A stretch of 64,000 nucleotides of DNA from a virus, in the IMG/VR virus record IMGVR_UViG_3300027759_000070, positions 1-64,000 of that record; one strand, given 5' to 3'. Each line of letters starts with the position of its first letter. The stretch's first letter is position 1. Positions 421 to 58,538 of the stretch are shown one piece after another. The notes beneath the pieces were generated by a model. That model was given only the letters and a program-made list of their open reading frames with translations. It had not been told where the DNA came from and did no database searches. The position numbers and the translations under genes were made by a program.

Positions 421-786
421 ATGATTACCTTTAAAGAATATTATCAAGTTAACGAACAAGTAAACTTAGATACTATTCAATCCGCTTTGGACATTGCTGG
501 ATTGGAGCCTACTATTGGGACTGGGGCTGATATAGCAAATACTATTATTTCTGGATTAAGAGCAGCATTTTCTAAAACTTCTGATGAAAGGAAGAAGCAT
601 ATCTTAAATGCGGCTATTAGTGGTGTTTCTATATTACCGTTTGGTGATATAGTAAAACTATTGAAACTTAGGAAGTCCAAGAAAGTAGCCAAGCTTGCAG
701 TTAAAGGTGCAAGAGGTTTAAAGACTTTAGCTAAGTCTAAACAATCAGCAGGTAATAGATTTGATAGTGAACCTATTCAGAAGTAG
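421..786 (+). CDS. Pre-toxin (PT-TG-like) domain protein with capsid-targeting-like leader
   Basis: Start reset to ATG 421 (TAAATA-N5-ATG); leader MITFKEYYQVNE; LDIAGLEPTIGTGADIAN...NAAISGVSILPFGD resembles pre-toxin helical hairpins. Confidence 0.55.
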   Translation: MITFKEYYQVNEQVNLDTIQSALDIAGLEPTIGTGADIANTIISGLRAAFSKTSDERKKHILNAAISGVSILPFGDIVKLLKLRKSKKVAKLAVKGARGLKTLAKSKQSAGNRFDSEPIQK

Positions 787-1489
787 ACTTCTTACTTAAT
801 AATTCGGCTCTCGTTGGTCTGAATTCTTTCTTAGGCATATTACCTCTAGAGAATAATTGCTTAGATCTCTGGAATGTTCCCTTTGGTACTGCTTCTTTAC
901 CTTTGGTAGCTAGTGTATCTCTTACTGCTCCGTATATCTTGTGTGCTTCGTTCTTGTGGGCTTCTAATCTTCGGGTCATTACCTGAAGTTCGCATTGAAT
1001 TCCGTTTACTACTAGTATAAGATGGTGTGAACCAAAGTATCCAAAATCTACATCAGATCCTCTTTCTTTTACTTCATGATTAAAAGTAGGAACCTTTCTT
1101 TTAACATCTTTTACAAAATTCTCTACCTGCTCTTGGTCATTGAAATATATGGTTGCTCTAACCAAATCATTCATTCCTGCTAATGTTCTAGATTTTCTAA
1201 TGATTACTTTGGACACAACGGATTTAAATGACTTCACTCCCCCAAAGTTTAAACTCATGGTCGAACTATTAATCCCCTTTGATTCAATATACTTTTCCAA
1301 TATCTTTCTATACTGTCTTGCTGTTTGTAGAAGCTTAGGCTGAACTTTACGATAAACATCTTTTAATTTCCTTATCAATACGTTCTGAGATACGGACCCG
1401 CTAGAATTTAATTTATCGAATTCTTTTACTTCGGGAAGCTTTGTGAGGTATAATTCAGAAGCTTGGTAATATTCTAGGAACGTAAACAT
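773..1489 (-). CDS. RelA/SpoT-like (small alarmone synthetase fold) nucleotidyltransferase
   Basis: Motifs VKSFKSVVSK, NDLVRATI, GYFGSHH, CELQVMT; no hydrolase domain; leader MFTFLEYYQASE. Confidence 0.75.
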   Translation of the reverse strand: MFTFLEYYQASELYLTKLPEVKEFDKLNSSGSVSQNVLIRKLKDVYRKVQPKLLQTARQYRKILEKYIESKGINSSTMSLNFGGVKSFKSVVSKVIIRKSRTLAGMNDLVRATIYFNDQEQVENFVKDVKRKVPTFNHEVKERGSDVDFGYFGSHHLILVVNGIQCELQVMTRRLEAHKNEAHKIYGAVRDTLATKGKEAVPKGTFQRSKQLFSRGNMPKKEFRPTRAELLSKKSTSE

Positions 1490-1521
1490 AATAATAGTTA
1501 TTCTTATATCTAAATAAAATT

Positions 1522-1950
1522 ATGATGTTGTTTAAAGAATTTTTCGATAAAGATAAAAATTCAAAAGTAAGTTATAGTGCAATTGTTCTTGATGACGAAT
1601 CTAGAAACTTATTATTATCCTCTCCTGAGATACTAAAATATTTAAATCCTAAACATCAGATCATTGCTCACCACATGACTATTAAGATGGGTGGTCTAGA
1701 AAATAGCGCATACAAGAACAAAGAAGGTACTAGGGAAACACTAACCGCAACTCATATTGGAATATCAAATGATGGTAATGTCATTGCGGTAAAGGTTGAT
1801 GGTCAAAGTGCAAATCAAATACCCCACATCACAATATCAATTAATCGTCACGAAAAAGCCAAACCGAAAGACAGTAATAATATTACCAACTGGAAACCTC
1901 TTAAGTCCCCTATTAGACTCACAGGGATTGTAGAGCAGATCAGACATTAG
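1522..1950 (+). CDS. 2H phosphoesterase
   Basis: Two HxT motifs (HHMTI, PHITIS); leader MMLFKEFF; TAAATA-N5-ATG. Confidence 0.75.
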   Translation: MMLFKEFFDKDKNSKVSYSAIVLDDESRNLLLSSPEILKYLNPKHQIIAHHMTIKMGGLENSAYKNKEGTRETLTATHIGISNDGNVIAVKVDGQSANQIPHITISINRHEKAKPKDSNNITNWKPLKSPIRLTGIVEQIRH

Positions 1951-2366
1951 TGTGCTGGTTCTTCGTCTACTATCTCTACTGGTATTTGTTTCCAGCCTGA
2001 TCTTTTTGCAATAGTAAACGTACTGTTCCCGTCCACTACTTTATAATAACCATTATTTATTTCCTTTACCGATATGGGTTGTCTGGAACTCATACCATTA
2101 TCATCATGATTGGCTTTTGTAAACATAACAATTAGTGCATGTCTAATACCAGATTCTCTTGCACGCATGTTTTGTAGTTTATCTACATCCATCATTACTA
2201 AATTAGGATAATCCATCTTAAAATATAATTCGGGTTCTTCTGGTAGGGGCAACATTTCCTCATCTGATAGATGTTCGTACTTTGCTAAAAGATCTTCATA
2301 TACATTTTCATTTGGGTACAGATTTGTATATATTTCTTGTAGTAATTTTAATTCGGATCTTTGCAT
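1947..2366 (-). CDS. ParB/Srx-like domain protein
   Basis: QPISVKEINNGYYKVVDGNSTFTIAKRSGWKQIPVEIV matches the ParB N-terminal core. Confidence 0.6.
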   Translation of the reverse strand: MQRSELKLLQEIYTNLYPNENVYEDLLAKYEHLSDEEMLPLPEEPELYFKMDYPNLVMMDVDKLQNMRARESGIRHALIVMFTKANHDDNGMSSRQPISVKEINNGYYKVVDGNSTFTIAKRSGWKQIPVEIVDEEPAH

Positions 2367-2368
2367 AA

Positions 2369-3067
2369 CTATCTTTTAAATGTTAATTTAGATCCAGCAA
2401 CCTGTAACACTTCTTCCCAAGGAATACGGGTAATCGCATCCATCTTCCCTCTTTGATGTGATGGTCTTCTGAAAATCTTGGGGAAGATTGCTTCTGCTGG
2501 ATTTTCTACCATTGGGAAATACTTGGAAGTATTGGGTCCGTCTATTAGATTCATAATATCAAATAATTTTCCACTTGGTATCACCTGAGTTAATTTCTTC
2601 TGTATTAGATCTCTTAGTCCATGTGTTCTTACGAATTGAAGATGATCCCCCTGCTGGAATGAGATGTAGTTGCCTTGGGCGAATAACCAACCTTTATAGT
2701 ATCCCTCATTTATAAGTTCTACCAAAAGATTTCCGTTTATTACCTTGTTACCTTTTGTTTCTACGGAACCAGAGTTTCTTCCTGCTCTTACATTTTCGGG
2801 TAAGTCCATCCATGCAGGAACTAACTTACCTGCCTTGTCTTTCTTTCCTTCAAAAACAAAAAAGTCTATTCCTGCCTTTTCTTGTTCCTTTGAGGCGGTA
2901 TTTACGATGTACCCATTTTCTTCCATGATACCACGGAATTCGTCTTCGGTCCTTTGACCTTTATTCTGACGATGCTGGTGTTGTTGTACAGTTTCTCCTT
3001 CTCTTTGTTTAGAAGCCTGTGCTTCTAATAGAAGAGCCTCAACTAGTAAATCAAATTTAAATTTCAT
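2369..3067 (-). CDS. PD-(D/E)XK-like nuclease fold protein
   Basis: GQRTEDEF...GIDFFV...SVETKG...LLVEL...GWLF. Confidence 0.55.
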   Translation of the reverse strand: MKFKFDLLVEALLLEAQASKQREGETVQQHQHRQNKGQRTEDEFRGIMEENGYIVNTASKEQEKAGIDFFVFEGKKDKAGKLVPAWMDLPENVRAGRNSGSVETKGNKVINGNLLVELINEGYYKGWLFAQGNYISFQQGDHLQFVRTHGLRDLIQKKLTQVIPSGKLFDIMNLIDGPNTSKYFPMVENPAEAIFPKIFRRPSHQRGKMDAITRIPWEEVLQVAGSKLTFKR

Positions 3068-3068
3068 A

Positions 3069-57337: not shown

Positions 57338-57341
57338 ACGA

Positions 57342-57854
57342 TTATTTATTTAATAGTAACTTAGTTTGTAAACTATTTTTAATTTTTGCCTCTAAATGCT
57401 TTAAATTATTTTTTTCTGTGTATTCTTTAATTTTTTTAAAATTTGTCTCTGGTTTGTTTTGTAATATTTTTTTAAGTTTGTAAATTAATTGAGTGTCAAC
57501 ACTTAACTCTTCCGAAATTACAAATACGTTAAAATTAAATATTTTTATTGACTTATTTAAAATTTTATGTATAATTGCTTTACAAGCTTCTTCCTCAAAT
57601 GTTAAATTTAATATTTTTAAATTTAATTCTTGGTTAAAAACTAAAACATTGTCTATGTTTTGTTTAAAATGAGATAAAATTTCATTTATTATAAAATGTT
57701 TAAATATATTATTAAGATCTCTAGAATTAATATTTATTTTTAAATTATTCTCGTACAAGAAATTAGAAATCTCTAATTCTATTTTTTCTGATAAAAGTAA
57801 ATTTAAACTTATAAGATTTAAATTATATTCTTTAATCTCATGATTGAAAATCAT
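57342..57854 (-). CDS. Hypothetical protein
   Basis: Very AT-rich ORF; start reset from promoter geometry. Confidence 0.6.
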   Translation of the reverse strand: MIFNHEIKEYNLNLISLNLLLSEKIELEISNFLYENNLKININSRDLNNIFKHFIINEILSHFKQNIDNVLVFNQELNLKILNLTFEEEACKAIIHKILNKSIKIFNFNVFVISEELSVDTQLIYKLKKILQNKPETNFKKIKEYTEKNNLKHLEAKIKNSLQTKLLLNK

Positions 57855-57859
57855 TATCA

Positions 57860-57888
57860 ATTATAACACATCTACTATTCATTGTCAA
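57860..57888 (-). promoter_or_regulatory. Consensus sigma70 promoter (leaderless geometry)
   Basis: TTGACA-N17-TATAAT, 5 nt before ATG 57854. Confidence 0.8.
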
Positions 57889-58284
57889 CTACAATTTTAC
57901 TTTTCCTAGTCGAAGATTTATAATTCCATTATAATAATCTTCTTTGAGGAGAACTTCTCTATCAAATTGTTCCTTTGCTTCGTAATAAGCCATTTGACTT
58001 TTATTTGCACAGAACCTTAATATTTCAAAAGTAAACTGGTCTTTACCGTGTTTTAGAATATCTTCGTTAAGTTCTTTAGAAGAACTTGTGTACGTTCTCC
58101 ATTTTGATTCTTTTGTATCTCTTCTAGCCCGTGTTTTTCCTTTTAAAGGCTTTCTTTTAATATTAGATATCATTTGTTTTTTACCTATATACTTTTTATT
58201 CGTAACCGTATTGGTTATTATGTATATAAATCCAAATGAGTTTTCGGGAATTTCTTGATTAGTAATCCAATGACCTAGATCCAT
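57889..58284 (-). CDS. GIY-YIG nuclease (endonuclease II-like, single domain)
   Basis: FGFIYIITN...KKYIGKKQ...WRTYTSSS...YYN. Confidence 0.8.
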   Translation of the reverse strand: MDLGHWITNQEIPENSFGFIYIITNTVTNKKYIGKKQMISNIKRKPLKGKTRARRDTKESKWRTYTSSSKELNEDILKHGKDQFTFEILRFCANKSQMAYYEAKEQFDREVLLKEDYYNGIINLRLGKVKL

Positions 58285-58292
58285 TCAACTAC

Positions 58293-58538
58293 TTACTTCT
58301 TAGATTTGCTTTTTCTATCTTTTTTAGATTCTTTATTAAAGTTTAAATTTCTTTTAATCGGTCCACCAAAAATAGATTTCGGCATAACATTACTTCCTGT
58401 TGCATAACTATCCGTATTACCAAAAGATCCACCAGTATTTCCAATTGGACCAGAAGCAGGAGAACCCATCACACTACCCAATCCACCAGCAGTCATCATT
58501 TCCATTAATTGAGTGTATAATTTATCAAACTTATTCAT
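58293..58538 (-). CDS. Small Gly-rich protein with leader MNKFDKLYTQLME
   Basis: TAAATA-N5-ATG. Confidence 0.65.
   Translation of the reverse strand: MNKFDKLYTQLMEMMTAGGLGSVMGSPASGPIGNTGGSFGNTDSYATGSNVMPKSIFGGPIKRNLNFNKESKKDRKSKSKK

Follow-up and report, generated by a model that had tools for sequence, protein, structure and literature searches.

Why should some 17 proteins with unrelated bodies, all encoded by one phage, begin with one of three related short leaders? The question is posed by a 64,000-nucleotide stretch of viral DNA (hereafter the window), the initial 64 kb of the 86,971-bp single-contig virus record IMGVR_UViG_3300027759_000070, which probably represents part of the genome of a very divergent, uncultured T4-like myovirus. 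The original prediction, made from the letters of the window, had taken the shared N-termini for capsid-targeting leaders of proteins that are packaged in the virion and injected. We consider it fairly probable, by homology with T4, that these leaders form a T4-type capsid-targeting and propeptide module on unrelated late proteins, which would be enclosed, cleaved and injected as in T4. The module as such was supported by the match to the T4 tag, the recurrence of the leaders in relatives, the exchange of one leader class for another between orthologues and the presence of a gp21-type protease, with 4 of the 17 members being weak.

Leaders at the N-termini of late proteins

All 17 quoted N-termini were found at their positions and on their strands, that at 21586 being on the plus strand (genes are named here by the coordinate of their start). 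On most of these flagged late proteins the tag takes up the N-terminal 10-15 residues, and three consensus types were recognized. Class A reads M-x-[T/S/L/K]-F-K-E-[Y/F]-[Y/F]...E. Class B reads M-(x)-K-F-[D/E/S/N]-x-[L/F]-[V/I/L]...Phi-Phi-E (Phi, hydrophobic), the aromatic residue having moved to position 3-4 and hydrophobic residues following at +3/+4, and class C reads M-x(3-5)-[L/I]-[I/L/F]-x-E-x-Y. When the whole record was translated in six frames, the class A expression M..F[KL]E[YF][YF] matched five times, in all five cases at the start of an open reading frame (ORF), and the core F[KL]E[YF][YF] without methionine matched just seven times.

The T4 record gives MKTFKEF as the start of ipI and MKTYQEFIAE as the start of ipII and ipIII, the genes of the internal proteins (IPs). 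According to PMC9026906, IPIII needs no more than its first 10 residues to be encapsidated, residues 4 and 7 mainly govern targeting, and residues 8 and 10 govern processing. As Phe4 and Tyr or Phe7 were each present in five of the five class A leaders, class A is the same tag as that of the T4 IPs.

To measure how specific the leaders are, each N-terminus was scored against those of late-promoter proteins of environmental relatives having unrelated bodies. A best cross-family score of at least 35 was reached by 13 of the 17 candidates versus 1 of the 99 other genes of the record. The weak members were 3536 (score 27), 5182 (28), 7666 (31) and 21586 (24). One further B-like gene lies beyond the window (76149-76574). 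Ordinary structural late genes begin with MA, MS or MP, and the motif is missing from them. In an all-versus-all blastp of the 17 proteins, similarity was confined to the first 12-21 residues, except that 55751 and 58538 aligned over about 46 residues; the claim that the proteins are mutually unrelated thus held beyond the leader for all others and failed for this pair.

The late promoter motif TAAATA-N5/6-ATG preceded 13 of the 17 candidates versus 28 of the 99 other genes, in agreement with the claim that most tagged genes have their own late promoter; those lacking it were 1489 (which has a TAACTA variant), 3067, 55751 and 2366. The tagged genes would be expressed late, when proheads assemble. 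A hydrophobic-x-E ending had been claimed as well, and [LIVMFY].E was indeed present at residues 6-20 of 17/17 candidates, but it barely discriminates, being found in 28/99 background genes too; since the candidates were chosen on this motif, the comparison is circular and was not counted as evidence. The narrower [LI].E ending occurred in 12/17.

A separate observation on promoters concerns the whole record, with examples at 58572 and 15598 in the window and at 65395, 68439 and 75154 beyond it: TAAATA stands exactly 5 (sometimes 6) nt before the ATG in 41 of the 116 genes. In several others the start codon is preceded at 5-7 nt by a TGnTATAAT-like box, and no Shine-Dalgarno sequence was visible. 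Such close spacing implies that mRNAs would be leaderless throughout the record.

The enzyme presumed to remove the leaders is a gp21-type prohead serine protease at 26023..26694 on the minus strand (Pfam Peptidase_S77, 2.1e-28). It is 36% identical to T4 gp21, and its LNH and G[MV]SSR motifs align with those around T4 His85 and Ser140. The gp23 major capsid protein (23124..24686, minus strand; Pfam Gp23, 3e-89) has an N-terminal propeptide with the candidate site CLRE/A, the slash marking the cut. Of the claim that this site matches, the presence of the site stood, and relatives have kept it in the form CL[RN]E[AG]; BLAST, however, did not align it exactly with T4 FLTE/A. In the gap between protease and capsid genes, the position of gp22, lies a putative scaffold gene (24789..25676, minus strand, 295 aa), so called on position and composition, with the N-terminus MAKEISNLLKE/A. 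A small, very basic protein without a family match (25700..26014, minus strand), encoded between scaffold and protease, is a candidate core protein. A homing endonuclease gene (22219-23010; PHROG, 3e-19) is located beside gp23, and a SegE-type GIY-YIG homing endonuclease gene (57889-58284; Pfam, 2.5e-33) lies within the tagged-gene cluster at 55-58.6 kb; both may help to shuffle tagged genes.

From homology with T4 we infer packaging, core binding, cleavage, retention and injection. The tag would be an amphipathic segment whose hydrophobic and aromatic residues bind the scaffolding core during prohead assembly, comparable to residues 4 and 7 of IPIII, and the core-bound cargo would be enclosed in the prohead. 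The gp21-type protease, which in T4 cleaves after L/I-x-E according to PMC9026906, would then cut after the Glu that follows a hydrophobic residue and free the mature protein inside the head. Kept there with the DNA, the folded cargo would enter the cell at infection. Besides a GP88-domain protein and several small basic proteins, this cargo would include a nucleotidyltransferase of the RelA/SpoT-like kind, a retropepsin-like peptidase and what is probably a 2H phosphodiesterase.

Should the tags function as they do in T4, proteins injected before any phage gene expression could be read from metagenomic sequence, for a large uncultured clade (598 gp23-related IMG/VR stretches), and the logic of tag, scaffold and protease would have been conserved despite about 26% capsid identity to T4. 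The RelA/SpoT-like, 2H-like and retropepsin-like cargos would be candidate factors for takeover or counter-defence in the first minute. To our knowledge, only GmrSD-inhibiting IPs and Alt have been characterized in T4. Another use of the leaders could be as tags that bring foreign proteins into such capsids.

Tagged proteins and predicted cargo

Five genes carry class A leaders. The first (421..786, plus strand, 121 aa; MITFKEYYQVNE; TAAATA-N5-ATG; score 52) encodes a protein with a Lys-rich, basic C-terminal half and no family match. The second (773..1489, minus strand, 238 aa; MFTFLEYYQASE) is supported as having a RelA/SpoT-homologue (RSH) fold, similar to small alarmone synthetases (SASs) or toxSASs. 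Its Pfam RelA_SpoT match (2.2e-5, 25.2 bits) was under the 27-bit cut-off and its PDB profile match to YwaC had an E-value of 0.011, and a Foldseek search with the AlphaFold2 model retrieved CapRel (9.5e-6), SAS1/SAS2 and Tas1. The motifs GYFGSHH and ELQVMT are invariant in its family, corresponding to the RSH motifs G-Y-x-S-x-H ... E-x-Q, and the leader is kept in nine close homologues. The third protein (1522..1950, plus strand, 142 aa; MMLFKEFF) contains two H-x-T motifs and is probably a 2H-type cyclic phosphodiesterase: its Pfam match to tRNA_lig_CPD (4.1e-4) was under the cut-off, it was related at 0.97 in the Atlas to viral clusters, with PF08302 in 29-39% of those, and a PDB sequence search gave nothing useful. 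The RSH-like and 2H-like genes (773-1950) are divergent, lie 32 bp apart and both carry class A leaders, which suggests that they form a functional pair.

The fourth class A gene (7893..8819, plus strand, 308 aa; MIKFKEYFFLKE; score 42) encodes a protein with a basic C-terminus. The fifth (56182..56589, minus strand, 135 aa; MILFKEFYSKSE), in which VDTGND is found, is supported by its predicted structure as having the retropepsin-like aspartic peptidase fold of the DUF785/RloA type. Pfam gave Zn_protease (5.2e-5), and Foldseek with the AlphaFold2 model matched Lpg0085 (3e-8; template-modelling score, TM, 0.72-0.75) and RloA, the overall TM being 0.67-0.75. Asp36 and Gly38 of VDTGN are invariant in the family, and residue 37 is Thr or Ser. 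Short members of this family elsewhere begin with M-x-x-F-x-x-[F/Y]-x-x-E, and the domain's first strand follows at once. Aside from these, the retropepsin-like domain forms the N-terminus of hundreds of proteins of 400-1,600 aa (P0072-P0194), which have a conserved lead-in of 13-16 aa, ...LQLEKLVIGLEEP. When the retropepsin-family protein P0061 was searched against deposited phages by tblastn, one match was obtained, in Pelagibacter phage Mosig; this homologue is annotated as glutathione synthetase, a hint that the long proteins are RimK-type ATP-grasp fusions.

In the AlphaFold2 models of the RSH-like and retropepsin-like proteins, the predicted local distance difference test (pLDDT) values were 76.8 and 81.7, with confidently modelled bodies and with residues 1-11 and 1-12, respectively, below 50. 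In both models the low-confidence stretches coincide with the predicted tags, which thus lie outside the modelled fold.

Seven genes were assigned to class B. The protein of 2369..3067 (minus strand, 232 aa; MKFKFDLLVEALLLE; score 37; no own promoter motif) is a possible PD-(D/E)xK nuclease, a lead only, as PDDEXK_14 was present in 13% of one Atlas cluster at 0.92. A small basic protein is encoded at 7691..7906 (plus strand, 71 aa; MKFDDLVNMFLEE; score 43) and a very basic one at 21586..21864 (plus strand, 92 aa; MNFEQLIDMLLIMEE); the latter had the weak score of 24, and its own family has varied B-type leaders. Four more lie on the minus strand: 55020..55751 (243 aa; MKFEKTYKQYME; score 38), which has no promoter motif of its own; 55751..56176 (141 aa; MSSRFNKFLEN; score 35), preceded by TAAATA-N6-ATG; 56879..57337 (152 aa; score 49), in which MKFSKLVKKSYKLLE/Q is followed by a Pro/Ala/Gly-rich stretch; and 58293..58538 (81 aa; MNKFDKLYTQLME; score 35), which is Gly-rich with a basic tail.

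Class C begins with 1947..2366 (minus strand, 139 aa; MQRSELKLLQEIY), which has a weak ParB N-terminal-like domain (Pfam ParB_N, 3e-4, under the cut-off; PHROG ParB-like, 3.7e-5) and has only residues 1-21 in common with 3069..3536 (minus strand, 155 aa; MQRSEFELLQEVY; weak score 27). The class C-like protein of 3545..5182 (minus strand, 545 aa; MVDKDSLLLEKAY, comparable to MIDKDYIAELKAL of T4 Inh; weak score 28) contains a GP88 domain, a label supported by Pfam (1e-30). Adjacent to the prohead protease, 26769..27815 (plus strand, 348 aa; MSNDSNLIFERYME; score 50) is its divergent neighbour; the protein has a basic C-terminus, and this head-module gene is conserved in relatives. A doubtful class C member is 7292..7666 (minus strand, 124 aa; MDISFYQMGDLYKKKVVLRE; score 31). 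Several tagged proteins are small with Lys-rich tails, as are the T4 IPs.

As to the enzymes that the original prediction had named as packaged, the RelA/SpoT-like, retropepsin-like and GP88 labels were upheld by Foldseek or Pfam, whereas the ParB-like and 2H labels stayed below Pfam cut-offs and the nuclease remained a lead. Word-indexed protein searches for cellular homologues returned clade members only; the expectation that such homologues lack the leader is touched on just indirectly, by the low-confidence N-termini of the models and the Foldseek matches to RloA and Lpg0085, which are bacterial.

A bolder reading, which we hold only tentatively, is a clade-wide cargo-loading code of phages of about 230 kb, in which three interchangeable leaders would bring some 15-30 proteins into each virion. 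Enzymes would be among them: an aspartic peptidase, a 2H phosphodiesterase and a nucleotide pyrophosphokinase of the RSH type, perhaps joined by a ParB-like NTPase and a nuclease. The leader type might then set copy number, head position or order of exit, and the injected arsenal would be far larger and more enzymatic than that of T4.

A modular leader could instead mark proteins that never leave the head as effectors. The tagged proteins would then mostly be parts of the core or scaffold, degraded and expelled like T4 gp22, gp67 and gp68, or would act solely within the head. Class C is nearer to the gp22 propeptide than to the IP tag, 26769 sits in the head module by the protease and is conserved there, several tagged proteins are of low complexity or basic with no enzyme fold, and according to PMC9026906 the T4 core proteins all have N-terminal Phi-x-E propeptides. 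However, at least three cargos are compact, folded and enzyme-like with a single tag at the N-terminus, and in this they are built like Alt and the IPs, which T4 injects; class A corresponds to the tag that these IPs carry; and the cargo is highly variable among relatives, unlike structural core parts. We therefore regard this explanation as improbable and prefer the T4-type module with injected cargo.

The leaders might also be protein-level signals for another destination, such as some other late assembly, a chaperone, the membrane or regulated degradation, and the lack of detectable similarity between the putative scaffold and T4 gp22 fits such a signal. But the same sequence targets the capsid experimentally in T4 (PMC9026906, PMC12373910), the tags resemble neither transmembrane segments nor signal peptides, and they co-occur with a gp21-type protease, making a destination other than the capsid distinctly unlikely. 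Outside the tagged set, the product of a late-promoter gene at 9002-10366 starts with MSDCGNHPNLFQTRRDFL, which resembles a twin-arginine export signal. A further observation outside this set is a long co-oriented sugar-nucleotide and glycosyltransferase-like cluster at 39604-51978, where N-termini resemble NAD-epimerase, nucleotidyltransferase and UDP-GlcNAc 2-epimerase.

Recurrence of the leaders in environmental relatives

The lineage to which the record belongs is known from environmental sequence. A megablast of 23 kb of the record against deposited phages gave zero matches, and its gp23 is 26% identical to that of T4. In IMG/VR, 598 gp23-related stretches were found, the best 80 of the 598 having 65-87% identity. 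Among complete members of the clade, one of 224,703 bp has terminal repeats and another measures 236,391 bp, their gp23 identity being 72-82%, and the genomes of relatives span about 224-242 kb; the 87-kb record is therefore probably a fragment, and probably less than half of the full genome. The 236,391-bp relative, G013, was picked for closer study solely on its 82% gp23 similarity.

For class A, IMG/VR was searched with a degenerate DNA pattern consisting of the late promoter, ATG, two codons and FKE[YF][YF], and the same pattern with its leader part reversed was used as control. The pattern occurred in 89 stretches versus 1 for the control. The 92 class A ORFs fell into 15 clusters with unrelated bodies of 88 to more than 585 aa, and at one locus three MGKFKEFF genes follow in succession. 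Phi-x-E was present at residues 10-13 or 20, which the pattern leaves free, in 14 of the 15 clusters, as at Glu10 in T4. One contig contains both a class A gene and a gp23 of 80% identity (L077/L108).

Could classes B and C, or the weaker members in the window, have arisen by chance from AT-rich codon usage, which yields N-termini rich in Lys, Phe, Asn, Glu and Leu? The DNA of the record has a G+C content of 29-37%, Phi-x-E is frequent among its other genes, as mentioned above, and the scores of 3536, 5182, 7666 and 21586 (24-31) are inside the non-candidate range. However, the class B pattern (MKFDxLV) was found in 39 IMG/VR stretches versus 0 for the reversed control, and its unconstrained positions are conserved: its 37 distinct proteins formed 18 clusters, and Phi-x-E occupied the unconstrained residues 10-16 in 30/37 versus 103/352 control late proteins. 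For class C, translating G013 (L176-L187) in six frames gave 10 occurrences of the core [LM]I[WF]E.Y, 10/10 at residues 6-11 of ORFs starting MND..., with a late promoter upstream; 9 of the 10 fit the strict MNDxx[LM]IWExY and one has IFE. The 15 C-like proteins of G013 fell into 14 unrelated clusters, and this genome has about a dozen B-type genes besides. The strict class C pattern was found in only 2 records, with 12 matches, which makes this exact variant lineage-specific; that lineages differ in their preferred leader was noted on G013 and IMGVR_UViG_3300033073_001153 (L192, L193, L196). Finally, in an unsupervised set of 546 distinct late-promoter ORFs from all loci (129 body families), which includes the loci selected on class A, N-terminal 16-mers reached a cross-family score of at least 35 in 79 of 8,256 family pairs versus 3 of 6,328 and 0 of 7,031 in internal-segment controls. 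For the classes themselves chance has thus failed already, and as an overall account of classes B and C and the weaker members it is very unlikely.

Single-linkage clustering of the N-termini was discarded as a classifier; it merged A, B and C as a continuum into one 43-family cluster, to which family 43 and an internal gp23 ATG had been assigned falsely.

Selection on the leader is at the protein level. Among 74 distinct class A leader DNAs, the codons TTT/TTC were used 49/25 times, AAA/AAG 44/30 times and GAA/GAG 36/38 times, so that synonymous codons vary about as in gene bodies; Ser3 is encoded by both TCN and AGT, and the five copies in the window differ at third positions. Moreover, among orthologues of the retropepsin-like cargo some have class A leaders (MILFKEFY, MISFKEYY) and others class B leaders (MKFDSIVKTLLK, MKFDQVIKKIL), and this exchange argues that the two classes would be functionally equivalent. 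A nucleic-acid signal (a downstream promoter or initial-transcribed element, an aid to ribosome loading of leaderless late mRNAs, or a recombination patch) would suit a start codon exactly 5 nt past the late-promoter motif, where transcript and coding start probably coincide, as well as the shuffling of genes at conserved regulatory cassettes reported for T4-type phages (PMC2839356, PMC4122927), but the codon variation, the A-for-B exchange and the 28 other late-promoter genes of the record, including tail and baseplate genes, that lack the leader motif leave it scarcely credible.

Several findings weigh against the preferred reading of a T4-type module with packaged and injected cargo. At the candidate cleavage sites, Leu or Ile stands at P3 in just 12/17, strict L/I-x-E occurs in one of the five class A leaders (7893, LKE), and in 1522 the next Glu after residue 6 is at about residue 26; in the largest environmental class A cluster, 39/46 members are without Phi-x-E in residues 8-25. 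For the putative scaffold, neither similarity to T4 gp22 nor a Pfam or PHROG function was found. Among class A records, Peptidase_S77 was found in 3 of the 9 searched and Gp23 in 1 of 5, the negatives being fragments of 11-57% completeness, and of the 89 class A loci only 33 have a further protein in common with the record, so many of these loci are more distant. No strict class A gene was found in the complete relatives G013 and G014; lineages thus favor different leader types, and leader preference is lineage-specific. Fast evolution of orthologues, and not a lack of relationship, may lie behind some of the cross-family matches of class B. All deposited phages are remote, the best gp23 matches being cyanophages at 32-33% identity (none above 33%), and tblastn with a 113-aa tagged environmental family gave zero matches in them. 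In an exhaustive profile search for cellular homologues, the best 150 of 831 matches appear phage-like, many with N-terminal extensions of their own.

Comparison with known systems

Most likely, the record holds the T-even internal-protein system, already in print, in a new and distant lineage that is uncultured and has both more cargo and three types of leader. According to PMC3012670, the IPs of T-even phages form a group of great diversity in which only the capsid-targeting sequence is conserved, and PMC12373910 describes ip genes as recognized by their signal sequence, Ip1-3 inhibiting GmrSD variants. Finding ip genes through their leader is thus established practice (PMC12373910, PMC3012670), which bears out that the concept was already established for T-even phages; a search of the literature for "capsid targeting" in marine, metagenomic or non-T-even phages found no paper that makes this link, one paper citing Mullaney & Black and going no further.

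Among other systems, the phiKZ-like jumbo phages (phiKZ, 201phi2-1, SPN3US) likewise have many head-internal proteins, their ejection or inner-body proteins, which a diverged gp21 homologue cuts after Glu (PMC9026906). They belong to other phage families and their propeptides are longer, with no short common N-terminal tag described as far as the account in PMC9026906 goes.

The core propeptides of T4 (gp22, gp67, gp68, gp24, Inh) are nearer in form, being short N-terminal segments that end in L/I-x-E: MLKEQLIAE/AQ in gp22, MAKINELLRE/S in gp24, MEGLIE/A in gp67 and MIDKDYIAE/L in Inh. The gp22 segment is resembled by MNDEQLIWE/AY of class C in G013, and that of Inh by MVDKDSLLLE of 5182 in the window. 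In T4, however, these are fixed structural or assembly proteins, whereas here 10-15 unrelated and variable proteins per genome carry such segments.

The T4 head also holds an enzyme, Alt, whose short N-terminal propeptide (MELITE/L) gp21 cuts off (PMC9026906), and as a packaged and injected ADP-ribosyltransferase Alt offers a precedent for tagged catalytic cargo. No ADP-ribosyltransferase was seen here, the cargos being RSH-like, 2H-like, retropepsin-like and GP88 proteins.

The closest likeness is to the T-even IPs themselves. They have the tag M-x-T-[F/Y]-[K/Q]-E-[F/Y], with the same key positions as class A, and are otherwise unrelated, often small and basic proteins, clustered in variable regions and accompanied by a gp21-type protease. 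The differences lie in scale, site, cargo and distance: T4 has three IPs, whereas about 17 tagged genes with three leader types occur here in 87 kb; in class A here the Glu is often residue 12, without Leu or Ile at P3; the phage is very distant, with gp23 only 26% identical to that of T4; and enzyme folds are predicted among its cargo, while the characterized IPs are GmrSD inhibitors.

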